From positions 1-64,000 of the forward strand of contig CAXHJY010001022.1 of assembly GCA_964016885.1 (NCBI GenBank): a DNA stretch of 64,000 bases, in the 5' to 3' direction. The translations under genes and the position numbers were made by a program. Numbering within the stretch: position 1 is the first letter of the stretch; each line of letters opens with the position of its first letter. This DNA is from Eledone cirrhosa (Eukaryota). Of the stretch, positions 21,540-63,689 are shown in pieces. The notes under the pieces were generated by a model, which was not told where the DNA came from, ran no database searches, and was given only the letters and a program-made list of their open reading frames with translations.

Positions 21540-22222
21540 ATATCAACTAGAAATTGATTGACATATATATATATATAAAATAAAAATAATTTGTAAAAGT
21601 GTGTAACAATATATTATCACTACATTATTGATAACTATGTGTAAGCACACATAGCTAGTTAGGTAACTAATTAAAGTTTAACTAGAACTTCAAACATAGA
21701 TACCTTATAAATTTATTATTCTTCCATGTATATATTTCATTAAAGAAATATATTTCACCATTAATTGATCGGTAAACCACAATAGACAAATCCCGGATTG
21801 TTTAGTTGAAAGGAGTCGGCTGCTATTTCCAGTTGTCGATAACCTTATTGACGCCACTGGGTGAAGCTGGCACGATGTGTGTATTTAAAAAAAATACAGC
21901 ACGTGCTACCAGTCATTCGTAGATTTGAATTTGGTGTGTAAACACAGATAGTTGAATTTTCTCCCTTGTTGAAACTTCGGTTTGGCACTGTGGTTTACCG
22001 ATCGCTTAATGGTGAAATATATTTCTTTATATGAACTAGAAATTGATTGACATATATATATACAAGAAATATTAATCAATTTATAAGGTATCTATTTTTG
22101 AAGTTCTAGTTAAACTTTAATTAGTTACCTACCCAGCTATGTGTGCTTTCCACAATTTTACAAATTATTCCGTGATTGTTTCATATGTTTATTTTAGATA
22201 TATATGTCACTCAAATTCTAGT

Positions 22223-22228
<6 letters not shown>
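21540..22228. mobile_element. Foldback/MITE-like element with long imperfect TIRs
   Basis: Termini atatcaactagaa...ttctagttgatat; inverted blocks ~21645-21715/~22078-22147 and ~21742-21790/~21980-22028; no ORF. Confidence 0.65.
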
Positions 22229-22277
<49 letters not shown>

Positions 22278-23776: not shown

Positions 23777-24071
23777 GTATGTATATATGTATATATGTAA
23801 TAGAATGAAACGAAATTTCATTTCTCATTCTTAGTACGGCACTTACTTAAATGTAAGTATGTATGTATACGTACATACATATATGTATACAGACGTACAG
23901 TAGTCTGTATGTATATATATACATGCTACTGTACGTCTGTATACATATATGTATGTACGTATACATACTTACATTTAAGTAAGTGCCGTACTAAGAGTGA
24001 GAAATGAAATTTCGTTTCATTCTATTCCATTTATCGTCTTCGGTGCGCCTGGTCGACTGATCTCACTCGAT

Positions 24072-24120
24072 ATGCAAATTAGGCTGCTCAGCCGTTAATT
24101 TTCATAAGGAGAGTATATAC
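24072..24120 (+). promoter_or_regulatory. Octamer + PSE-like box + TATA-like (repeated per unit)
   Basis: ATGCAAAT 24072-24079; TAATTTTCATA 24096-24106; gtatatac ~24113-24120. Confidence 0.5.
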
Positions 24121-24153
24121 TTTCGGACGTTCAACCATCTGGCAGAAAGGTAT

Positions 24154-24196
24154 ACGGTGCTGACGATAGCTAATAAGCTTGAAACTAGTACATCGT
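24154..24196 (+). ncRNA. Type I hammerhead (S1 unit 1, intact)
   Basis: acggtg CTGACGA t agct aata agct t GAAA ctag TA catcgt. Confidence 0.88.
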
Positions 24197-25037
24197 TCCT
24201 GTGTCAGTGTTGAACAAAAAGGTGACGTGGTTGCCTAAATACTGTACGGCGTTATTCAGGCTGCTTGTTTGTTTACAAACGAACAAACCGAGCATTATAA
24301 TAAATGTTCGGTAGACTGATACGTGCATATATATATGTGTACCTGTATGTATATATATACATGCTACTGTACGTCTGTATACATATATGTATGTACGTAT
24401 ACATACATACTTACATTTAAGTAAGTGCCGTACTAAGAGTGAGAATTGAAATTTAGTTTTATTCTATTCCATTCATCGTTTTAGGTGCGCCTGGCCGACT
24501 GAACTCACTCGATATGCAAATTAGGCTGCTCAGCCGTTAATTGTCATAAGGAAAGTATATACTTTCGGACGTTCAACCATCTGGCAGAAAGGTATACGGT
24601 GCTGGCGATAGCTAATAAGCTTGAATATTGAACATCGTTCCTGTGTCAGTGTTGAACAAAAAGGTGACGTGGTTGACTAAACACTATACGGCGTAATTAA
24701 GGCTGTTTGTTTCTTTACAAACGAACAAACCGAGCATTATAATAAAAGTTTCGTAAACTGATACGTGCATATATATATGTGTGCTTGTATGTATATATAT
24801 ACATGCTACTGAACGTCTGTATACATATATGTATGTACGTATACATACATACTTACATTTAAGTAAGTGCCGTAATAAGAGTGAGAAATGAAATTTCGTT
24901 TCATTCTATTCCATTCATCGTTTTAGGTGCGCCTGGCCAGCTGAACTCACTCGATATGCAAATTAGGCTGCTGAGCCGTTAATTTTCATAAGGAAAGTAT
25001 ATACTTTCGGAAGTTCAACCATCTGGCAGAAATGTAT

Positions 25038-25080
25038 ACGGTGCTGACGATAGCTAATAAGCTTGAAACTAGTACATCGT
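25038..25080 (+). ncRNA. Type I hammerhead (S1 unit 3, intact)
   Basis: Same as unit 1; units 2, 4 and 5 (24596, 25480, 26122) carry core or stem mutations. Confidence 0.85.
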
Positions 25081-25631
25081 TCCTGTGTCAGTGTTGAACA
25101 AAAAGGTGACGTAGTTGCCTAAACACTGTACGGCGTAATTCAGGCTGTTTGTTTGTTTACAAACGAACAAACCGAGCAATATAATAAAATTTCGGTAAAC
25201 TGATACGTGCATATATATATGTGTGCCTGTATGTATATATATACATGCTACTGTACGTCTGTATACATATATGTATGTACGTATACATACATACTTACAT
25301 TTAAGTAAGTGCCGTACTAAGAGTGAGAAATGAAATTTCGTTTCATTCTATTCCATTTATCGTTTTCGGTGCGCCTGGCCGACTGAACTCACTCGATATA
25401 CAAATTAGGCTGCTCAGCCGTTAATTTTCATCAGGAAAGTATATACTTTCGGACGTTTAACCATCTGGCAGAAAGGTATAAGTTGCTGACGATAGCTAAT
25501 AAGCTTAAAACTAGTACATCGTTCCTGTGTCAGTGTTGAACAAAAAGGTGACGTGGTTGACTAAACACTGTACGGCGTAATTCAGGCTGTTTGTTTACAA
25601 ACGAACAAACCGAGCATTATAATAAATGTTC

Positions 25632-25820
25632 AAGGGCGGTGGATTGGCAGTATCGGTAGAGGGTCGGACGCCATGCTTTGACGCATAGAGTTACGGCCCT
25701 TGCCATTCTGAGTTCAAATCCCGCCGAGGTTAACTTTGCCTTTCATCCTTACGGGGTCGATAAAATAAAGTACCAGTAATACACTGGGTAATTTCTGGCC
25801 TTGTGCCAAACGTAGAAACA
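25632..25820 (+). mobile_element. Full-length tRNA-derived SINE with 16 bp TSD
   Basis: A box tggcagtatcgg; B box gagttcaaatcc; TSD attataataaatgttc at 25616-25631 and 25821-25836; central domain resembles the Meta-type/octopus SINE core (from memory). Confidence 0.92.
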
Positions 25821-26405
25821 ATTATAATAAATGTTCGGTAAACTGATACGTGCATATATATATGTGTGCCTGTATGTATATATATACATGCTACTGTACG
25901 TTTGTATACATATATGTATGTACGTATACATACATACTTACATTTAAGTAAGTGCCGTAATAAGAGTGAGAAATGAAATTTCGTTTCATTCTATTCCATT
26001 TATCGTTTCGGTGCATCTGGCCGACTGAACTCACTCGATATGCAAATTAGGCTGCTCAGCCGTTAATTTTCATAAGGAGAGTATATACTTTCGGACGTTC
26101 AACCATCTGGCAGAAAGGTATATGCTGCTGACGATAGCTAATAAGCTTGAAACTAATACATCGTTCCTGTGTCAGTGTTGAACAAAAAGGTGTCGTGGTT
26201 GCCTAAACACTGTACGGCGTAATTCAGGCTGTTTGTTTGTTTACAAACGAACAAACCGGGCATTATAATAAATGTTCGGTAAACTGATACGTGCATATAT
26301 ATATGTGTGCCTGTATGTATATATATACATGCTACTGTACATCTGTATACATATGTGTATTTACGTATACATACATACTTACATTTATGTATATATATTT
26401 ATGTA

Positions 26406-40529: not shown

Positions 40530-42570
40530 ATATATACAACCCGTATGGGATTGAAAGAACAAAATATAACGACTTAATTTTAAAGGAATTGCGGAAAAAT
40601 TATAAAAAGGCCCCAAGTGATGTTTTATTGGATATTAATAATGATGCATTTGAAATTATCACCATATCTTGGAATAGAGCGGAAAACCGAACCTTTCATA
40701 CCAAAGCAACCACGGATAAATTTTAAAGACCATAAAAGAAATTTCGAGGAGGACCTGCCAGTTAGACTTATAGCACCTTCAAAATCAGATCTTGGAATAA
40801 TTAGTAAAATTACAATAGAGAGGATTTTACCAACTCTTAAATTTAGGTCATGGCTAAACCAATCGAAAGGCACTAGTGAAGTCATAGATCGGTTCACTAG
40901 TGAAAATAAAAATAATTATAAGTTCATTGAAATGGACATAACTAGTTATTATTCCTCGATAACACCTAATCTGTTAAATAAGGCGTTATCATATGTATAT
41001 AAACATACTGACTTATCTAGTGATGAGATACATATTATATTAACAGGGCGAACTTTGATTCACTTTAATAATTGTTTTTACGTTAGGCACAAGGCCAGCA
41101 AATACCCAGTGCATTACTGGTACTTTATTTTATCGACACCGTAAGGATGAAAGGCAAAGTTAACCTCGGCGGGATTTGAACTCAGAATGGCAAGGGCCGT
41201 AATAATGATCTTTGGAGTAGATCAGATAGACAGAAGATTGTTGACATTACTATGGGTTCGTCTGATTCGGCGCAAGTTACCGATATTGTGGGAATTTTCA
41301 TCCTTAACCTGATAAATAGAAAACTGCCGGAGATTACCGGAGGTTTTTATAGAGATGGCATACTATTTATTTTAGAAAAACATAATAATAGCGAATTAAA
41401 AACTGTAAAGAAAGTAATTATAGAATTTTTTTTAAATTACGTCCTGAAATTAGAAGTAGAAAATAATAATAAAATAGTTAATTTTTTAGACGTTACTCTT
41501 AATTTGAACTCAGGCCTTTATTATCCCTTCCATAAACTCAATGAGAATTTAAATTATGTTAGTTTTTATTTTATTCATCCTAAAAGAGTTAAGAATGCAA
41601 TTGTCAACAGTGTACAGCACCGAATGTCCAGGCTATCTGCTAATAGATCCATATTTAATAGTAAGGCTGTATATTATAATGAAGCGTCACATAAAGCTGG
41701 ATATAACAATAATATTGAGTATATAGAAAAAAATAATGAAAATAATATTAATTATAATTACACTAATCATAATAAAAACGAATATAAAAACAACTTGCGG
41801 AATAAATGGGGGGAAAAAATAAGAAATAGGTATGCTCCGCCAGCATCTTTAGCTATTAAAACACAGGTAGCACACTTATTTTTTAAGCTTTGGATAAATG
41901 CTTCCCTACGTCACATAAATATTACTCTATTTTCAACAGACACACAGTTAAACTTTCTCATTCAAGAACTATGAATATTGCTCAAAATATAGCATAAATA
42001 AATAATAAAATTCTTAACTTGAACCGACATATAATTAGCAATAATAACAATAATAATAACAATACATTAGTTAATGGGAATAACAATAATAGTTTAAATA
42101 CTAATAATAGTAGAACACCTGTAAATAATAATGTGAATAGTTTAAGGTCTGGAAATTACATTGAGAAGAAATGTAATTGTAGAAAGCAGTCCGAATGTTC
42201 TTTACGAAATAATTGCGTTGACAAGAATATAGTATATAAATGTACCATTAAGACAAAAAATAGTATATATAACTATATTGGTGCCACTTCATATAAATTT
42301 AAGGAACGGCAGTATAATCACAGACAGTCTTTTATTAAACCAGATAAGAAATGTTCAACTTCACTTTCGCAATTAATATGGTCTTTAAGGGACAATAATA
42401 TTAAATATTCCATCTCTTGGACCAAATTGAAGAATGCTACTGTTTCGCAAATTTTGCAATGTTTGTAATTTCGGTCTCCACTGAAAATTACAAGTTATGA
42501 CAATTTAATCAACAAAAAAATGAATTATTCAGTAGTTGTCACCATAACATTGGTAAAACTTTCCAAGCAT
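40530..42570 (+). pseudogene. PLE RT-GIY-YIG pol remnant interrupted by a SINE
   Basis: FKDHK, FIEMDI, MGSSDSAQ, GFYRDG, NFLDVTLNL, CNCRKQSECSLRNNC, NYIGAT. Confidence 0.92.
41072..41200 (-). mobile_element. SINE inserted in the family G RT
   Basis: Same SINE family; taataat on both sides; removal restores IHFNNDLWSR. Confidence 0.88.
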
Positions 42571-45750: not shown

Positions 45751-45967
45751 AAAGACTTTTGATATATTGAAGGCTTCTTTGTTTTATTTTCATAATTCTT
45801 CGGCTCTGTTTAATTACATTGAGCTATACCTTTTACTGTCATTTCTATAATACGAAGAGGGTGTTTAACTCCAACACGCTCCAGTATTTTAATCCTTGTC
45901 ACTGCTCCCGATTGGTTGAGCTTCCGCCTATATACTGGTGTTTTTGCCTTTATATATATCTGACAGT

Positions 45968-48629
45968 ATGCTAACAAAGAGTTACCTGCCTTTATCTCTG
46001 AAGAATATTCCCACCCCCTCTAAGAATACTTACGAAAAACCATTGATTGCTAGTGGTAACTCCTTCGTAAAAAGGATTAGATGGCGTGCTTTCCACTATG
46101 ATATTAATAGGAATAGGAAGGACCCCAGGAATAGAACAAATTTTAATAACTATGGCTTCAAAACTTATATGAGCCCACCACATAATGTTCTATTAGATAA
46201 TTGTGAAAGTGACTTACTCTCTCTTGTCAAAAATATTAAGTATAGGCCAAATAATAGACATAGAAATTATAATAAATTTGATAACTTCCAGTCTAGACTT
46301 AAAAATATTGTTAAGGGTTTTAGTGCGAATAAGTCTATTATTGTCCCGGCGGATAAGACTAAGAATCTATACTCTATGGATTACAGTGCTTACCGTGACT
46401 TTCTTTATAAGGAGCTGCATAGAAATTATAAAAAGACTACGCTAGATAATTTGAACCATATCAATTGTGAGGGTCTTAAAATAGTCTCGGACCTCGGGCT
46501 TGATAAGTACACCCAGCCATATTACCCTAGAGAACCGAGATTCACTATTAAGGATCATAAGGTAGACTTCATTAGTAACCCCTCTGTTAGACTCATCTGT
46601 CCTTCTAAGTCCGATATAGCCATAATCAGTAAAAAAATCCTTGACCTTATTATACCAGATGTTAGGGATAAAGTTAATTTTAACCTATGGGGGAACACTA
46701 AGGAAGTTATACATTGGTTCTCTGGGATTAATAAACTTGAATCTAATAAGTTTATCCAGTTCGATATTGATGTCTACTACACATCGATTTCACCCATCCT
46801 CCTCAATAAAGCCTTAATGTTGGCCATGACAGTGTCCAGCCTTACACGATCACAGGTAGATATTATACTAGCAGCCCGTAGAACTATTATTAATTTTGAG
46901 GACACATCTTGGACCCGTAAAAACACGCCCAACAATTTCTACGTTACAATGGGTTCGAGTGATTCGGGCCAGGTAACTGATCTTGTTGGGTTGTTCCTCC
47001 TAAATGAACTATATGTTACCTTTCCGCACTTTAATGGCGGACTATATCGTGATGATGCATTGTTCGTAATTAACTCTAGCACCAACAATGTAGAACATAA
47101 TAAGAAGAAGCTTTATAAGTTTATTTAAAAGCTATAACCTTTCGATCACGATAGATAGAAACGATAGAGCGGTCAACTTTTTAGATGTGACTTTGGACTT
47201 GGTCACTAATAGTTTTAAACCCTTCTATAAGCCTAATGAAATACTTTCTTATGTTAGTCCGAATTCTAACCACCCCAAATCTATCATAAGCTCTATAATT
47301 AAGAGTGTATCTAATAGGATTTCCACACTCTCTAAGGACGTAGGAATATTTAATGAACATGCGGAGTACTATAATAATTCCCTAGCTAATTCCGGTTACT
47401 CTAGTAAAATACATAATAATAATAGTAACCTTAGAAATTCTCCGCTTACTTATAATAATAATAACATAATATCCCATAACATGGCCATGAATGGGAGTAG
47501 GAAGCATAATAATCGTAGAAATTACATAGGTGTATCTGAACCCATCCATAAGTTAACCCACCGGACTCGTAATAGGGAATCAAGTCGAACCCTCTGAGCG
47601 CTCACTCATTGGTGATGATTTTGCTAGATCTAATTCTAATAATGTTGTTTCTACTGATCCTATTATTGGCCCTAATCCTTTTGATAGGATTCCAGACAGC
47701 AGCAGATCTACTAGAGGTAGAAACATTAAGAGATATAATGGAATTTTGGCTGATTCTAATAATGCGGTTTTAACTAATCCTTGTAATAACCCTATCTTAA
47801 TAATGGGATATTAGATAATGGTAGAGTCGGAAAGGATAAAAATAGAAGGAGACTAAATACTTATTTTAACCCGCCATATAATCAGGAAGTATTAACTAAT
47901 ATCCCTAGGTCTTTCTTTTCTATCTTAGAGAAACATTTCACCCCTTCTCATAAATACCATAGTATTTTTAATAAAAATGTTATTAAACTTTCATTCTCTA
48001 CCACCCCTAATATTAGTTCTCATTTAGCTAGCACTAACAATAGGAAAATTAGGGATGGATACTCCTCTCTACATACTACTAGTCTGAACAGATCTGGAAA
48101 TGCCTTACCACCAGAGCAGACCTTATCTAATAGTAATCCTACGTTTAATGCATCACTACTTCAGCCAATCAATAGCACCCGGAAGTGTAACTGTAGAGTG
48201 AGTGCTAACTGCCCTTTAAACGGTAACTGCCTCTCTAAGAACATCGTCTATGCTTGCGTAGTTATAACTAATTCCTCTAATAGAACTTATATAGGCTCTA
48301 CATCTAACACTAGGTTTAATTCTCATATCTCTAATTTCAAACATGTTAAGTTTAAGAATTCTATTTCTTTAGCACCCTATATCTGGGATCTTAAGGGGGC
48401 TAATATACCATATAGCCTTAATTGGCGTTTAGATGCACGCTCTAATAACCTTTCTACACATACTAAATTGTGTAATCTCTGTATCCTCGAGACACACTCT
48501 ATAATGTTCTCTAGTGAATCCTTACTTAATAGAAAGTCTGAGATATTCTCTTCTTGCCCCCACGCTATTTCTAATTCTTACTTATATTATAAAACTAAAG
48601 GTTCTAGTAGTGTAAATTGTATCCATTAG
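45968..48629 (+). pseudogene. PLE RT-GIY-YIG pol with several frameshifts
   Basis: SLKNIPTP, ADKT, KDHK, FIQFDI, GLYRDDAL, NFLDVTLDL, SNHP, YFNPPY, CNCR...CPLNGNC, TYIGST, CNLC, LNRKSE, CPH. Confidence 0.95.
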
Positions 48630-50531: not shown

Positions 50532-53500
50532 CAAATAGAAACTATATTTATAAAACCATATTTATTTCATTATACATATTTCAAGGATACCAAGTTAAAC
50601 CATGGTATGCCTTCATCAGACAAAATACAATATATACCAGTTTTATAAATAAACATTGACGTACCCTTTCAAAATGTGACCGTTACTTTTGGAAGACATC
50701 AGGATAGTGGTTTGTTTATTTTAGTAAGTTGTAGTGTTAAGGATAAGTAAAATGACGGAGAGCGAGAGAGAAACGTGGAGAAAAGAAAGGGAGAGATAAA
50801 TAAAGAAAAAGAGGAAAGAAAAAAAAGAAAAAAGAAAAAAAGAAAAAAGAAAAAAGAAAAAAAAAGAAAACAGAGGAAAACAACAGAGATATATCAAACC
50901 ACCAGACAGAGAGAAAAAACTCAAGAGAGAGAATATAGAGATAGAGAGAGGGGGAGAGAACGAAAACCTTAAGTCATGTCATATTAAGTTGAGTCAACAA
51001 TTGAGATGAAATGAATAAATAAAATTAGAAATATTAATATTCATGAATGGAATATACATATATAATATGAGAAATTAATCATTGTTTAATTATGATTAGA
51101 TATTTAGTTTAAAATTTGAGATCAATATATTAAAAATTGGAATTTAAACATCACAAAATATATATATTGCTAGAGAAATTATCTATCGTATAGCACGTAC
51201 ATATAGGCAAAGATACATAAATATATTTATACACACACACTCATAAAATACACATTATATCTACTCCCGCATATAATATATATATACAAAGCATAAGTGA
51301 TTGTTTTATTACTGCTATACATTCCTTGTGTTATTAAATAAAAATTCTTAGTATATATATAAATATATAGGATTAACTTTCATGCATTTATGGCTGTTAA
51401 ATTATGCATATATGCAATCAAAACTGCATGGGTAAGCATGTACATGTACATGTACACAATTCTTAGCTATACATATATAAATATGTGTGTGCATCTTCAC
51501 CCAATTGGTAGACACGCGTCACTCATGCATATATACAGATAGACATATAATCATAAAAAAGCATATAACACATGTATATGTATGTTAATACACATATATA
51601 GATACATAGTCGTATAGAGATAAGTATACATCAATATATTACATAGTACAATTGAGTATATAAAATACAAAATGATTATATTTTGGAAATATAATTATAT
51701 CAATATAACTTAAAATTCTACAAATATCAACATATTAAAATATTTTAAAATATTATAGAATATTTTAAGTTAAAATAATATGTTTAATAGATTTAGTGTA
51801 GAAATTTATCTTACGTATATTTTAATGAAGATATTGAAAAGATAAACTTTTGAAAATTATGAGAAGCTATAAGAATAAAAACCAACCTAATAAAGGTTAC
51901 ACAAATTTGTTAGGTGGTTTATATGAAGGGCTTTACCTATCACTTCCCATTTTAAAGTGTATGGTATGTTACTTGATTTTAATGAGTGTATGTATGTCGA
52001 TAGTGAGGTTACGTTGGTAAGTTTAGGGTTTCTGATCGAATGAAGGTGTGAATTATATCTGGACTTAAAGCTATTCGATGTTGAGCCTATATATACTTTC
52101 GAGATGTGATTAGCGGTTACAGTACCGGAGTAGATTTTGTCTTTATTTAGGCAGTTCTTATTTAATGGGGATATCTTGTTAGGCCTACAATTACAATTGT
52201 TTTGGTAACTAGTATACTGGTTAAGCGGGTATGCATTTGAGTTGTTGTTTCTGTTTCTACTTCTAGTATTATGATTATCGTGAGTATTATTATTATTGGT
52301 ATTATTAGTGTGACTTGCTGTATGGTCTTGTACTGTGTTATTGTTCAGGTTATTTATATGCTAAACATTATTACTTTGGTGTAATTTGAAGTACTTTTTA
52401 ATCTTTCTCTTGTTGGTGCTGGCTATATGTCTGCTATGTTAGGTGTGGTGGAGTAGGATAATTGTGTTTTTGTTAAATAGGTTGTTGTATTTATGGTTAG
52501 TGGGAAGTTTTTCTCTAGAGTAGAGAGGAAAGTTATGTTTGTCGATACATTTAAGTTGAACGGGGGGTTAAACAACGTGCTACTTCTTCTATTCTTCTTA
52601 TCGGTGTTATTCATACTACTGTTTAGTGTGGTGTTAGGTTCCTTCTTATCAATATTTTCCTTTCTGTGGTGTTTCTTATGATTATTTTCTGTGGTGTGAT
52701 TTAACTTTTTTATGGTGACTTTTATATAGGAGTCAGGATTTTCAAAACGATGATCATATTTACTTTTATTCATGGCAATGTTGTGTGAAATTATATTAGG
52801 TTATCTATGGGTGGTTGACGATTTAGGTTTAAATTTAATTTTAACTCTATGCCCAGAACGGGCTAAGGCTTCATTATAGTATTGGGAGGTACTATTAAAT
52901 GTATTCTCGTTGTAAGAAAGGCTAGAGATTCTATTAGATACCCCTTTAATGATTGAGGTCAGTACATGTTTAAAGTGGGTAGAGTTGGTATTAACATAGA
53001 ACAGTTTTTGATTAGATTTATGATAAGATGTGTATTGTTTAGAGTCTAATTAGTGAGTGACGTCCAGGAAGCTAACATTGTTGGTGTTTTTATCTAAAGT
53101 GATACCTAAGTTATAGTTTTGAAATATTTTATGTAATTGTTTTATAGTTCTTTCTATATTGAACTTTTTATACTCTAAGAAAAACGGTGCGTCGTCTCGG
53201 TAGAGGCCACCGTTGAGGTAAGGTAGGTTCTTGTGTATTTCATTTAAGAGAAATAGACCGACATATCGGTTACCTGTGCCGAGTCACGAGATCCCATGGT
53301 GATATCGAAGTTGTTGGGTGTATTCTTGCGGGTCCATAGTTGGTGTTCAAATTTAATTATTGTTTTCCTGGCCGCAAGGATTATATCTACCTGGAATCTA
53401 GTGAGTTCACTATTGTTCATGGCCATTATTAATGGTTTATTTAGGAGGATAGGTGAATTAGAGGTTTAGTAGAAGTGTATATCAAATTGGATGAATTTCT

Positions 53501-56107: not shown

Positions 56108-56570
56108 CTGTTTTTGTCTTTTAAGGACCATATGAGTTCTGAGAGAGCAGTGTTGGTTCTTTTAAGTTTGTATATGAATGATGATTATAGAGACGAGCTT
56201 TAAAAGAGGTGGAAGTGGAGCCAAAATAGGTGAAGGAATTGGTGCTAGTTATAATTTTACATTCATAAATTAAGTTTTTATCGAGACAATGGTTGTTGAG
56301 AGGACATTTATTTTTAATGCGGCAGTTGCAATTAGAGAGATTATTAATGAGTGACCTAGTGTTATCTATAGAAGGAATTGGATTGGAGAAGTTGTTTGCG
56401 ATAGGAATAATAGGAATAATAGTTTCTTGATTTAGAGTTGGATTATGAACATTTAGCGAAGTTGTGTTTGACGTTGTATTTGGGTTTACAGAAGTTAGCC
56501 TAGGGTTTACAATGACGTCAGGAGTACTATTACTGTTATTATGAAATTCAATATTATGAAATTCAATGTT
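56108..56570 (-). pseudogene. PLE linker and GIY-YIG fragment
   Basis: CNCRIKNKCPLNNHCLDKNLIYEC...TYFGSTSTSFKARLYNH. Confidence 0.88.
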
Positions 56571-57537
56571 TTTCTCCCCATCAACGAACTCATTATTAAT
56601 ACATATTAACTCTTTATTCGCATATATTATCAATTCCTTCAATATACAAACTTTAACTCCACATTATTTTTCTCAAATCCTTCTACACACAAACCTTAAT
56701 AATTTTTCTCTTCGTTAATTTTGAAATTGCCACAATATCTTATCAACATACATTTCTTTTTTTTGACGTTAGAATATTCATCCACAATTATTATTTTTTC
56801 TCTCTATCTTCATACATAAATTCCCTTCGTTAATTTTCAAATTCCTTTAATTTATACATTATCTTCCAACGGTTCCCAACCTCTCTATGTAAAACTATAT
56901 ATCTTTTTCTCAGTTATAAAAACTATCTCTTTCCCTCTATCACCCATCTCTCCCTCTCCACCTTCACTCTCATCTCCTCCCCCTTTTTTCATCCTTTCCA
57001 CCCCCCCTCCCTAAATAAAATATTTTTTCCTCGCACATATCCTCCCTTCGTTAATTTTCAAAATTTTTTTTTTTAAATTTTTAATTGATACATTATCTTC
57101 CAACGGTTTTCAACCTCTCTATGTAAAACAATATATCTCCTCTCAGTTATAAAAACTATCTCTTTCTCTCTATCACCCATCTCTCCCTCTCATCTCCTTC
57201 CCTTTTTCATCCTTTCCACCCCCCCTCTCTAAATAAAATATTTTTCACAATATCACACATCAATCTAAAACCACTTTTCATATGTTGATTTAAAACTGCA
57301 CTATCCACAAGTGTTTTTTAGCCTTCATATCATGTTCTCTTGTTTTATCTGATGAAAACACAAATATTATTGCATGATGATGTTTGTTTTTGAAATGCGC
57401 ATAATAAAATACATGGAACTCCTTTAACCATCTTTTGAACTTATATTATGTATACTCCAGTCCTACAAACTGTAGAGTGCTTCTTATCCGATATCTGCAT
57501 TGCTTTATTGTACTACAATAAAACTCACCTCCTACAT
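56571..57537 (+). mobile_element. PLE family D pLTR with internal ~220 bp duplication
   Basis: ~56823-57025 repeats at ~57044-57246; 3' part matches 1095-1421. Confidence 0.75.
57343..57409 (+). ncRNA. Type I hammerhead (family D)
   Basis: ttttat CTGATGA aaaca...tgttttt GAAA tgcgca TA ataaaa. Confidence 0.82.
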
Positions 57538-60338
<2,801 letters not shown>

Positions 60339-60567
60339 TTAAACAATTAAGTTAAAAATGTACATCTACATATGCATACTGAAATACTAGTGTGTATATG
60401 AATACAAACACGTATACATATGTAGGTGTACCAAGTCTTTCACTGGTCGCTTTACAGTGAGCGGCCCAGCTATTCTGTATGTAAACACACAGACAAACCG
60501 GTTTTTAGAGTCACACTGGTTTTTCGGGGGAACACCTTCCCCCTATTCTCCAGAAAGCCAGACAAGG

Positions 60568-60612
60568 AATATTGACCTAGTTTCGTTGTTGTTACAACTC
60601 ATCAGCAATGTT
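60568..60612 (-). ncRNA. Type I hammerhead (S2, inverted)
   Basis: Reverse complement of the S2 HHR. Confidence 0.75.
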
Positions 60613-60691
60613 TACCTATCTACCGGCCTTTCTGGAGAATTGTAAAAGCACATATCGTTATATGCTTTTTCTATGAAAATTAGTAGTGGGC

Positions 60692-60747
<56 letters not shown>

Positions 60748-61035
60748 AAATAACGAAACGAAATTAAATTTCGTTTCGTTTGTAACTCACTTTTGTATGA
60801 CTGACGCTTAAACAATTAAGTTAAAAATGTACATCTACATATGCATACTGAAATACTAGTGTGTATATGAATACACACACGTATACATATGTAGGTGTAC
60901 CAAGTCTTTCACTGGTCGCTTTACAGTGAGCGGCCCAGCTATTCTGTATGTAAACACACGGACAAACCGGTTTTTAGAGTCACACTGGTTTTTCGGGGGA
61001 CACCTTCCCCCTATTCACCAGAAAGCCAGACAAGG

Positions 61036-61080
61036 AATATTGAACTAGTTTCGTTGTTGTTACAACTCATCAGCAATATT
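61036..61080 (-). ncRNA. Type I hammerhead (S2, inverted)
   Basis: Reverse complement of the S2 HHR. Confidence 0.85.
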
Positions 61081-61403
61081 TACCTATCTACCGGCCTTTC
61101 TGGAGAATTGTAAAAGCACATATCGTTATATGCTTTTTCTATGAAAATTAGTAGTGGGCAGACTAATTTGCATAGAGTGTGAGTACGCACCGGTTCAGCG
61201 GAGACGATAAAAAACAAATAACATAATAATGTGTGTATTCATATACACACTAGTATTTCAGTATGCATATGTAGATGTACATTTTTAACTTAATTGTTTA
61301 AGCGTCAGTCATACAAAAGTGAGTTACAAACGAAACGAAATTTAATTTCGTTTCGTTATTTGTTTTTTATCGTCTCCGCTGAACCGGTGCGTACTCACAC
61401 TCT

Positions 61404-61450
61404 ATGCAAATTAGTCTGCCCACTACTAATTTTCATAGAAAAAGCATATA
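61404..61450 (+). promoter_or_regulatory. Octamer + PSE-like box (repeated per S2 unit)
   Basis: ATGCAAAT 61404-61411; TAATTTTCATA 61427-61437; aaagcatata. Confidence 0.5.
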
Positions 61451-61496
61451 ACGATATGTACTTTTACAATTCTCCAGAAAGGCCGGTAGATAGGTA

Positions 61497-61541
61497 AATA
61501 TTGCTGATGAGTTGTAACAACAACGAAACTAGGTCAATATT
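61497..61541 (+). ncRNA. Type I hammerhead (S2, ctaggtc variant)
   Basis: aatattg CTGATGA gttgt aaca acaac GAAA ctaggt caatatt. Confidence 0.8.
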
Positions 61542-61965
61542 CCTTGTCTGGCTTTCTGGAGAATAGGGGGAAGGTGTTCCCCCGAAAAACCAGTGTGACT
61601 CTAAAAACCGGTTTGTCTGTGTGTTTACATACAGAATAGCTGGGCCGCTCACTGTAAAGCGACCAGTGAAAGACTTGGTACACCTACATATGTATACGTG
61701 TGTGTATTCATATACACACTAGTATTTCAGTATGCATATGTAGATGTACATTTTTAACTTAATTGTTTAAGCGTCAGTCATACAAAAGTGAGTTACAAAC
61801 GAAACGAAATTTAATTTCGTTTCGTTATTTGTTTTTTATCGTCTCCGCTGAACCGGTGCGTACTCACATTCTATGCAAATTAGTCTGCCCACTACTAATT
61901 TTCATAGAAAAAGCATATAACGATGTGTGCTTTTACAATTCTCCAGAAAGGCCGGTAGATAGGTA

Positions 61966-62010
61966 AATATTGCTGATGAGTTGTAACAACAACGAAACTA
62001 GTTCAATATT
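61966..62010 (+). ncRNA. Type I hammerhead (S2)
   Basis: aatattg CTGATGA gttgt aaca acaac GAAA ctag TT caatatt. Confidence 0.88.
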
Positions 62011-62434
62011 CCTTGTCTGGCTTTCTGGTGAATAGGGGGAAGGTGTTCCCCCGAAAAACCAGTGTGACTCTAAAAACCGGTTTGTCTGTGTGTTTACATA
62101 CAGAATAGCTGGGCCGCTCACTGTAAAGCGACCAGTGAAAGACTTGGTACACCTACATATGTATACGTGTGTGTATTCATATACACACTAGTATTTCAGT
62201 ATGCATATGTAGATGTACATTTTTAACTTAATTGTTTAAGCGTCAGTCATACAAAAGTGAGTTACAAACGAAACGAAATTTAATTTCGTTTCGTTATTTG
62301 TTTTTTATCGTCTCCGCTGAACCGGTGCATACTCACATTCTATTCAAATTAGTCTGCCCACTACTAATTTTCATAGAAAAAGCATATAACGATATGTGCT
62401 TTTACAATTCTCCAGAAAGGCCGGTAGATAGGTA

Positions 62435-62479
62435 AATATTGCTGATGAGTTGTAACAACAACGAAACTAGTTCAATATT
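62435..62479 (+). ncRNA. Type I hammerhead (S2)
   Basis: Same motif as 61966-62010. Confidence 0.88.
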
Positions 62480-62903
62480 CCTTGTCTGGCTTTCTGGAGA
62501 ATAGGGCTAAGGTGTTCCCCCGAAAAAACAGTGTGACTCTAAAAACCGGTTTGTCTGTGTGTTTACATACAGAATAGCTGGGCCGCTCACTGTAAAGCGA
62601 CCAGTGAAAGACTTGGTACACCTACATATGTATACGTGTGTGTATTCATATACACACTAGTATTTCAGTATGCATATGTAGATGTACATTTTTAACTTAA
62701 TTGTTTAAGCGTCAGTCATACAAAAGTGAGTTACAAACGAAACGAAATTTAATTTCGTTTCGTTATTTGTTTTTTATCGTCTCCGCTGAACCGGTGCGTA
62801 CTCACACTCTATGCAAATTAGTCTGCCCACTACTAATTTTCATAGAAAAAGCATATAACGATATGTGCTTTTACAATTCTCCAGAAAGGCCGGTAGATAG
62901 GTA

Positions 62904-62948
62904 AATATTGCTGATGAGTTGTAACAACAACGAAACTAGTTCAATATT
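62904..62948 (+). ncRNA. Type I hammerhead (S2)
   Basis: Same motif as 61966-62010. Confidence 0.88.
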
Positions 62949-63372
62949 CCTTGTCTGGCTTTCTGGAGAATAGGGGGAAGGTGTTCCCCCGAAAAACCAA
63001 TGTGACTCTAAAAACCGGTTTGTCTGTGTGTTTACATACAGAATAGCTGGGCCGCTCACTGTAAAGCGACCAGTGAAAGACTTGGTACACCTACATATGT
63101 ATACGTGTGTGTATTCATATACACACTAGTATTTCAGTATGCATATGTAGATGTACATTTTTAACTTAATTGTTTAAGCGTCAGTCATACAAAAGTGAGT
63201 TACAAACGAAACGAAATTTAATTTCGTTTCGTTATTTGTTTTTTATCGTCTCCGCTGAACCGGTGCGTACTCACACTCTATGCAAATTAGTCTGCCCACT
63301 ACTGATTTTCATAGAAAAAGCATATAACGATATGTGCTTTTACAATTCTCCAGAAAGGCCGGTAGATAGGTA

Positions 63373-63417
63373 AATATTGCTGATGAGTTGTAACAACAAC
63401 GAAACTAGTTCAATATT
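63373..63417 (+). ncRNA. Type I hammerhead (S2)
   Basis: Same motif as 61966-62010. Confidence 0.88.
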
Positions 63418-63634
63418 CCTTGTCTGGCTTTCTGGAGAATAGGGGGAAGGTGTTCCCCCGAAAAACCAGTGTGACTCTAAAAACCGGTTTGTCTGTGTGT
63501 TTACATACAGAATAGCTGGGCCGCTCACTGTAAAGCGACCAGTGAAAGACTTGGTACACCTACATATGTATACGTGTGTGTATTCATATACACACTAGTA
63601 TTTCAGTATGCATATGTAGATGTACATTTTTAAC

Positions 63635-63689
<55 letters not shown>

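Follow-up and report, generated by a model that had tools for sequence, protein, structure and literature searches.

Background

Retrozymes are an established class of small, hammerhead-bearing retroelements; Penelope-like elements (PLEs) were proposed as partners of those found in animals (PMC7229834). More recently, Li et al. 2026 (10.64898/2026.07.22.740005) linked retrozymes to pLTRs; neither 'promoter' nor 'octamer' occurs in the accessible text of that paper. A review of 2020 named two gaps in the understanding of animal retrozymes, the promoter from which they are transcribed and a motif that would point to the partner transposon (PMC7761336). An snRNA-type promoter in a hammerhead satellite is likewise already known, from the newt. 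The PLEs themselves leave a recognizable arrangement in the genome, in which 5' truncation is combined with an inverted copy and a one-sided tail; as described in the accessible text, the tails measure 30-40 bp and stand on one end only, and the families of the Hydra clade insert in (TA)n, as does Naiad (Craig et al. 2021, bioRxiv 2021.04.23.441226).

Here we examine two families of tandem repeats, S1 and S2, in a 64,000-nucleotide stretch of the Eledone cirrhosa genome (assembly GCA_964016885.1, contig CAXHJY010001022.1, positions 1 to 64,000; hereafter the window). A preliminary description had proposed that the two families conserve only a set of promoter-like boxes and a covarying hammerhead fold, and that long-term selection on both marks an old replicating RNA lineage rather than neutral satellite DNA. 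Our results identify a superfamily of non-LTR retrozymes with a likely captured U6-type promoter, a DNA-templated retroelement that resembles newt satellite 2. S1 and S2 are probably two families of this tandem, hammerhead-bearing superfamily that are self-transcribed, predicted to be self-cleaving and likely copied by a PLE RT.

Results and discussion

S1 and S2 are homologous tandem arrays between AT repeats

The S1 insertion (23795..26386, plus strand) begins with an inverted, 5'-truncated piece on the minus strand (23795-23926), the tail end of which lies at the left (TA)n, and continues with about 5.2 forward units of 442 bp. The tandem runs over 23905-25631, resumes to 26386 after an inserted SINE and stops against the (TA)n on the right, with unit offset 347. 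The stretch singled out in the preliminary description is located in the first S1 unit. The S2 insertion (60742..63640, plus strand) is built likewise, of an inverted piece (60742-61222), whose tail end meets the (AT)n of 60696-60741, and 5.1 forward units of 469 bp (61230-63640) that end at offset 360 at (AT)n; a second truncated, inverted S2 piece occupies 60339-60695. A further insertion of the S1 subfamily (9098..9927, plus strand, limits read by eye) has a box at 9560, an intact hammerhead at 9648 and an inverted 5' piece, and sits inside (AT)n. The SINE-like insert that interrupts S1 is 189 bp long (25632-25820), is flanked by a 16-bp target duplication (25616-25631/25821-25836) and contains a B-box-like motif. 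Other inverted-repeat arrangements between (AT)n runs are present in the window at 21540-22230 and 44282-45497/48824-50091.

Over the region first described, S1 and S2 align with z=16.7 against 500 dinucleotide shuffles, and over the promoter segment with z=10.8. Between TATA and core the value falls to z=0.1, so that the sequence has been replaced there while the fold was kept, and the remainder of the unit gives z=7.1, a figure possibly inflated by its TA-richness. The two families are thus homologous end to end, with one replaced stretch in which pairing persists. The word 'only' in the original claim has to be given up, since the remainder aligns too and the same series of hairpins is common to both monomers. 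The general character of the units is that of non-LTR retrozymes. Against a unit size of 150-450 bp, S1 (442 bp) falls inside and S2 (469 bp) slightly over, which we count as agreement; GC is about 0.38 in 2-kb bins, under the 50% typical of non-LTR retrozymes; among ORFs of at least 120 aa, the arrays show just a TA-repeat frame at the end of S1, as suits units with no ORF; and monomers are self-paired, as in retrozymes, with z of -5.1 to -10.4 (three monomers, 60 shuffles).

A superfamily of high copy number

Searched with S1 and S2, the 2.996-Gb genome returned 2,260 and 1,060 candidates, respectively, and the 40 that were scored in each case were 97-100% identical. A whole-genome pattern of box, TATA and core produced 26,856 matches (not de-duplicated) and its reversed counterpart 0. 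A variant of the pattern (1,811 matches vs 0 in the control) revealed families S3-S6, and a pattern with U6 spacing (1,146 overlapping matches vs 84) revealed S7 and S8, which look older, keep the U6 spacing and have a hammerhead-like core downstream; in S7, a run of T5-T8 follows soon after the core. Sites of S1/S2-type elements in the genome number in the tens of thousands. The patterns demanded box and TATA, together with the core for S3-S6, so that retention of these parts is partly built in, and we draw evidence from those features alone that the patterns left free.

The members of S7 (loci L248, L249, L259, L263, L269 and L273), S8 (L274) and S4 (L122, L147, L211, L212 and L216) are diverged, mostly solitary relatives; in S7 and S4 a T-run comes shortly after the hammerhead-like core, as it does in short Pol III genes. 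Copies of S5 recur every 50-60 kb on one strand (at least eight in G000:C1:143343558-143791155), probably within a large segmental repeat. The long S2 arrays (L119-L121) include one of about 30 units, which diverge by 0.6-1%, and 14 units belonging to a subfamily that is 10% distant from the others sampled.

The promoter box is that of the host U6 genes

The boxes listed at the outset are present in the first S1 unit: aatttcgtttc (24008-24018), tttatcgt (24030-24037), tatgcaaattag (24071-24082), taattttcata (24096-24106) and tgtttaca (24270-24277), together with a CA at +17/18, CTGACGA (24160-24166) and GAAA (24181-24184). A further box, given as 'actcac', has the letters 'tctcac' in this unit. 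As to their being promoter-like throughout, the description fits the U6-type box and TATA; two of the others signal the 3' tail, and one serves as partner in a hairpin.

The box TATGCAAATTAG (24071..24082, plus strand) matches the element found at -76 to -78 of the host U6, U6atac and RNase MRP genes. The host U6 genes read ATG(C/G)WAATKAG at -76 to -78, with TATA at -30. Combined with TATA, ATGCAAAT(T/G)AG matches the host U6, U6atac and RNase MRP promoters in five of five cases and those of U1/U2/U5 in none of 13. With at most one mismatch, the box stands at -76 to -78 in all four distinct U6/U6atac promoters examined and at -77 in RNase MRP, against a background of 3 in 144,176 positions. 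The 12 U6 loci sampled represent three distinct upstream types, and in five of the tandem copies a SINE has entered the promoter; of six U6atac loci, one has the box and the others look like promoterless copies. The 13 distinct U1, U2 and U5 promoters are without it and carry YCAGT at -55 to -58. The 'octamer' of the preliminary description is therefore the host Pol III type-3 box, and it is likely that the U6-type promoter of the superfamily was captured from the host.

Host snRNA promoters fall into two classes, which should be useful for guide-RNA expression in E. cirrhosa. U6, U6atac and MRP have ATGCWAATKAG at -77 and TATA at -30 (L061-L064, L151, L247); U1, U2 and U5 (L073-L075, L157-L167, L187-L193) have AATTA near -90, YCAGT near -57 and TATA near -30; a C/T-CCTCCCT-like motif lies near -260 in both. 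The SINE-like element of window positions 25632-25820 is also found, reversed, between TATA and start in five of ten tandem U6 copies (L067, L068, L070-L072).

In the first S1 unit, the box is followed by TCAG at +16 (24088..24091), which only in S1 and S5 looks like the YCAGT of the U1/U2/U5 promoters, by TATA at +42 (24114..24120; +43 in S2, S3 and S5), inside a hairpin in each family, and by C|AG about 30 nt after TATA (24143..24145), the putative transcription start. All lie on the plus strand, and the corresponding box and TATA of S2 unit 2 are at 61872-61883 and 61916. CA occupies +17/18 in 104 of 109 distinct units. A start at the G of +77, the U6 distance from the box, was considered and dropped, as S3 has no G there and C|AG tracks TATA. 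The box and TATA of the elements are probably active as a promoter.

The sequence taattttcata (TAATTTTCATA, 24096..24106, plus strand) is not a PSE, that label having been misassigned. It is a near reverse complement of the box and supplies the 3' arm of a hairpin with it, it differs between families, and the host snRNA promoters examined do not contain it. The box/partner pairs read AAATTA-TAATTT in S1 and S2, AAATGAG-CTCATTT in S3 and TTAGTAT-ATACTAA in S7. Predicted energies of this hairpin are -4.2 to -11.9 kcal/mol in ten element copies vs -0.9 to -3.2 in five host genes, and the effect reaches p<=0.02 in 5/10 and 0/5 of these, respectively.

The presence of both box and TATA within hairpins, and a box-TATA spacing unlike that of U6, are also what one might expect of a retrozyme with no promoter of its own, read through from its neighbours, in which the box persists as an RNA hairpin, a protein site or a relic of U6 capture. 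This is the field's model, retrozymes being seemingly promoterless according to the accessible text of the review (PMC7761336). We nevertheless regard it as improbable: pairing alone would let both strands of the hairpin drift, yet the box is fixed while only its partner changes; the distances among box, CA, TATA and C|AG are constant across families that can no longer be aligned in between; and among the host genes examined the box is peculiar to those of Pol III type 3. The proposed selection on a DNA promoter is borne out further by the tail-gathered S2 copies, in which subfamily-diagnostic sites are fewer in the promoter block (1/50) than in the body (30/180; Fisher p=0.004).

The features that bear on the choice of polymerase point in both directions. 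The box-to-TATA distance is 42-43 nt in S1, S2, S3 and S5 vs 46-48 in U6, or 4-5 nt shorter, which sets these four families apart from all the Pol III promoters examined; it is about 47 nt, the U6 spacing, in S7 and S8. In Drosophila, the spacing of Pol II promoters falls short of that of U6 by 4 bp, yet sequence decides the polymerase (PMC4227766, accessible part). A matrix of the Pol II PSE fits best at +16 in 35/36 S1 and 7/10 S5 units and does not fit in S2, S3 or S4; this, along with a CCA at +16 in S7 in the company of U6 spacing, weakened YCA at +16 as proof of a Pol II PSE. Newt satellite 2 is said to combine an octamer with a PSE. S2 contains T5 and T6 runs, which copies read through; runs of this kind would stop Pol III. 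Spacing and T-runs together lean S1 and S2 toward Pol II, which appears somewhat likelier than Pol III, and for the elements in general we would put Pol II at slightly better than even.

A hammerhead fold maintained through replacement of its helices

The type I hammerhead of the first S1 unit (24154..24196, plus strand) comprises stem I (24154-24159/24191-24196), the core (24160-24166), stem II (24167-24180), GAAA (24181-24184) and a palindromic stem III, ACTAGT (24184-24189), with a predicted cut after A24190. In S2 unit 2, stem I lies at 61966-61972/62004-62010 and the core at 61973-61979, and the predicted cut follows T62003. The helices are those first reported: stem I acggtg/catcgt in S1 and aatattg/caatatt in S2, stem II agct/agct and gttgt/acaac and, in S1, the outer stem gttcaac/gttgaac and ACUAGU. 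The outer stem extends stem I over 24129..24215 (plus strand), GTTCAAC (24129-24135) pairing with GTTGAAC (24209-24215) outside additional inner helices. Its 5' arm is upstream of the putative start, so the extended stem could form solely in read-through RNA. The tgtttaca box is held in a hairpin (24266..24287, plus strand), and a hairpin occupies the same place in S2.

Each tandem unit carries a hammerhead of type I, as in retrozymes. For stem III, the reported sequence is right and a stable helix is not, ACUAGU being a palindrome with a 2-nt loop. It is self-complementary in 92/109 units, through four palindromes in different families (ACUAGU, AUGCAU, ACAUGU and ACAGCUGU). A short palindromic helix III requires a dimer in hammerheads (PMC4209133, accessible part), and we predict that those of S1 and S2 cleave as dimers; against this, just one of nine retrozyme dimers from Xenopus was cleaved in vitro, according to the accessible text (Li et al. 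2026, 10.64898/2026.07.22.740005). In the window, core, stem I and stem III are intact together in 2/5 units of the S1 array, not adjacent, and in 4/5 forward units of the S2 array. Two consecutive complete hammerheads, the mark of an 'active' element in Li 2026, are thus found in S2, with four in a row, and not in the window's S1 array. Counting against activity, the first stem II pair is U.U in S1 and A.A in S5 instead of G-C. Rfam returned no hammerhead at gathering score in the whole window, nor at E<=5 in the S1 array; its miRNA matches were rejected as TA-rich hairpins below cut-offs. Two X1 contigs that end at 24189 and 24191, beside the predicted cut, were not counted, as contigs end at forks and both come from a single study.

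The covariation that the preliminary description expected was found. An alignment of S1 and S5 was built from 12 of 17 representatives, after removal of one truncated, one chimeric-looking, one duplicate and two S3-like copies. In it, 91.6% of cells are paired (22-41% with slid partners as a control), 8/26 pairs have changed on both sides, and the covariation score is reached by 0/500 shuffles, a measure inflated by the relatedness of the sequences. Because of this inflation, the arms of six families, lined up by the core, were also exchanged: with its own arms a family pairs at 8.5/9 positions and with foreign ones at 5.2, a total reached by 1/720 permutations, with the stem I register picked for best pairing, which favours own arms somewhat. 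An all-family MAFFT alignment misregistered stem I and was left out of the counts. Helices have been replaced while pairing was kept, and the box has stayed fixed while its partner changed; together these observations argue for selection on DNA sequence and RNA pairing at once, as originally suggested.

Insertions with the anatomy of Penelope-like elements

Two of the supposed promoter boxes belong to the 3' end of the element. The aatttcgtttc motif lies in a tail hairpin, AATGAAA-TTTCG-TTTCATT (24003..24021, plus strand), between two fixed 3' ends, and TTTAT|CGT (24030..24037, plus strand) marks the longer of these, joined to (AT)n at insertion ends. In S1, the fixed ends fall at unit offsets ~347 and 400-404; in S2, they fall at 360-365 and 430-436. 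The tail so defined measures 57-70 nt, more than the 30-40 bp of PLEs, and stands on one end only. The S2 tail joined to (AT)5 gave 1,178 forward matches vs 0 in the control (overlaps inflate the reverse count). The tail-anchored set consists of the 57 distinct places that occur in the first 100 matches listed, two of these places looking like a duplicated segment; as the search demanded this junction, tail conservation and AT first ends are partly built in. At 33/57 of these loci an inverted piece adjoins the truncated 5' end, and 30/33 such pieces end at offset 360-365, mostly running into AT repeats. These second ends were unselected, and they point to (TA)n as the target. In S1, a hand count found an opposite-strand piece in 25/30 loci. 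Fixed 3' ends, variable 5' truncation and an adjoining inverted copy make up the PLE type of insertion.

The tail-anchored S2 copies have a median length of 598 nt, and five exceed 2.5 kb; 44/57 run past the cut site and 36/57 reach the box. A template longer than a linear monomer, whether a circle or an uncut multimer, is implied by these lengths, a circle having roughly even odds. The same copies bear on a quite unlikely alternative, a true Pol III gene of the U6 type, in which a short linear RNA from start to T-run is copied in the manner of a SINE and arrays are built later in DNA. Several features would suit such a gene: the box is exclusive to Pol III genes, a T-rich run precedes the next box by 35-45 nt in each family, S7 joins U6 spacing to a T5-T8 run soon after the core, and, in S2, five copies with lengths of 287-308 nt terminate close to the cut. 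Copies of such an RNA would lack the promoter, yet 36/57 reach the box; copy ends show no significant pile-up at the start (2/52) or at the cut (4/52, 1.9 expected, p=0.12); and the outer stem requires sequence upstream of the start.

In only 15/28 loci was the distance between forward and inverted pieces smaller than that to the nearest other locus, with 12 private variants shared between the pieces and 62 unshared. Divergence within and between loci was uninformative for top-identity loci (S1 3.0 vs 2.5%, S2 0.65 vs 0.74%). Loci taken in genome order are homogeneous (L240, 0.13% within vs 1.6% to the nearest; L121, 0.84 vs 9.7%), several of the 'within' values resting on short misaligned overlaps. 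Homogeneous arrays are compatible with a circle, a homogeneous multimer or local duplication.

The window also contains PLEs, whose frames carry the DKT and CxCX5C marks of the Hydra clade; their repeats stop with a T-rich stretch against (AT)n, and a hammerhead lies a short way before it. With Pfam, the PLE RTs were missed and GIY-YIG scored just under cut-off. The insertion anatomy leads us to regard spread of S1 and S2 by a PLE enzyme as very probable, and a Hydra-clade partner as reasonably likely. One Hydra-type PLE lies in partial tandem on the minus strand (17090-21384), with a truncated GIY-YIG piece, a repeat bearing a long-stem-II hammerhead, an RT frame (20101-18335), a GIY-YIG frame (18345-17746) and a second repeat ending at (AT)n. 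Decayed PLE frames occur at 14195-14914, 40584-42468, 45920-48629, 51887-52800 and 56121-56663. Hammerhead-like motifs without the box lie at 1192, 22526, 50619 and about 56100 on the minus strand and 35004 and 57349 on the plus strand, mostly 45-150 nt before (AT)n, and are probably ends of other PLE families.

Given this anatomy, the units could themselves be terminal repeats (pLTRs) of an unsampled autonomous PLE, left behind by 5' truncation. PLE coding pieces were found in 14/346 loci and, according to the accessible text of Li et al. 2026, 24/57 families of Xenopus retrozymes resemble pLTRs. A search of six hammerhead-bearing window stretches for a unit-like PLE terminal repeat gave short low-complexity matches only. 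We judge this origin very improbable: 36/57 tail-anchored copies continue upstream into another unit, an array of about 30 units exists, and the PLE repeat of the window differs in its hammerhead and lacks the box.

That the elements are not neutral satellite DNA is supported. As to the notion of an old replicating RNA lineage, our results do not demonstrate RNA-to-RNA replication; the element is of a known kind, the non-LTR retrozyme, copied into DNA with Penelope-like anatomy. A strong form of the idea, a viroid-like RNA replicated from RNA to RNA and rarely copied into DNA, could draw on the highly self-paired monomer (z -5 to -10), on a promoter hidden in hairpins and on the claim of such replication for a plant retrozyme, as far as the accessible source goes. 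It strikes us as most implausible, with hammerheads in one polarity of the unit only, a conserved DNA promoter and recent copies that are 97-99% alike.

A model for transcription and spread

A retrozyme with its own promoter, as we prefer to view S1 and S2, may propagate as follows. The box and TATA would set off transcription some 47-59 nt ahead of the hammerhead cut, and from there the polymerase would continue across the next unit. Two hammerheads, pairing via the palindromic stem III, are predicted to excise a unit-length RNA that holds the promoter, and the long stem I would keep both RNA ends together for a host ligase. A Penelope-like RT with a GIY-YIG nuclease, likely of the Hydra clade, could then prime at two fixed points 57-70 nt apart and copy more than one unit into (AT)n, a step for which the anatomy is seen and the enzyme presumed. 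The product would consist of forward and inverted 5'-truncated pieces, and each new copy would regain both promoter and ribozyme.

A more speculative history, which we advance tentatively, is that a circular-RNA retroelement captured a host U6 promoter, folded it into hairpins so that the RNA carries it along and, by bringing box and TATA about half a helical turn closer together, traded Pol III for Pol II. The closer spacing might have allowed T-runs to be read through and rolling-circle copying by a Hydra PLE enzyme. On this tentative scheme, S7 and S8, with U6 spacing and a T-run after the core, would represent the state before the switch, and S1, S2, S3 and S5, with short spacing and tens of thousands of sites, the state after it.

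Comparison with known systems

In the accessible literature that was searched, we found no report of a U6-type promoter in a retrozyme, nor of these families, and PMC10886601, PMC13652810 and PMC2837043, searched by term, yielded nothing on this point. Schistosome Sm-alpha and Dolichopoda pDo500 (PMC2220036, PMC2837043) are, like S1 and S2, hammerhead satellites under structural constraint; the promoter of Sm-alpha is an internal Pol III promoter, whereas that of S1 and S2 is of the upstream U6 type and comes to lie inside a unit by tandem order. Newt satellite 2 (Coats et al. 1994, as cited in PMC2220036) is likewise a satellite with a hammerhead, and its snRNA-type promoter, reported as Pol II, is internal as well; it belongs to another phylum, the box of S1 and S2 is of the host Pol III class, and the likeness is one of description only.

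With Hydra-clade PLEs and non-autonomous elements of Chlamys such as MRC1 (bioRxiv 2021.04.23.441226; Cervera 2014, PMC4209133), as far as their accessible text describes them, S1 and S2 have in common 5' truncation, partial tandems, an adjacent inverted copy, a tail on one end, (TA)n targets and a hammerhead near the 3' end. Unlike PLEs, they have no ORF, their tail measures 57-70 nt, their sequence does not match that of the window's PLE repeats, and their stem II is short and canonical where minimal PLE hammerheads have a long one.

S1 and S2 have the sequence features of the metazoan non-LTR retrozymes (Cervera and de la Pena 2020, PMC7229834; PMC7761336; Li et al. 2026), which, in the accessible text, share with S1 and S2 the type I hammerhead, short AT-rich tandem units, a weak palindromic stem III, a self-paired monomer and co-occurrence with PLEs. 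At 442-469 bp, the units of S1 and S2, known here from DNA alone, are at or above the 150-450 bp of those elements. Metazoan retrozymes seem devoid of a promoter, and of any motif that would indicate a partner (PMC7761336), in contrast to the U6-type box and the PLE-type insertion with a fixed tail of S1 and S2. To both of these gaps the E. cirrhosa genome offers a concrete answer: the box can be matched to snRNA genes of the host itself, and the insertion, by its two fixed 3' ends, points to Penelope-like enzymes. Its families, at least seven in number, form a natural series in which the choice of polymerase could be tested, and a substrate of 450 nt could be used to build a PLE retrotransposition assay.
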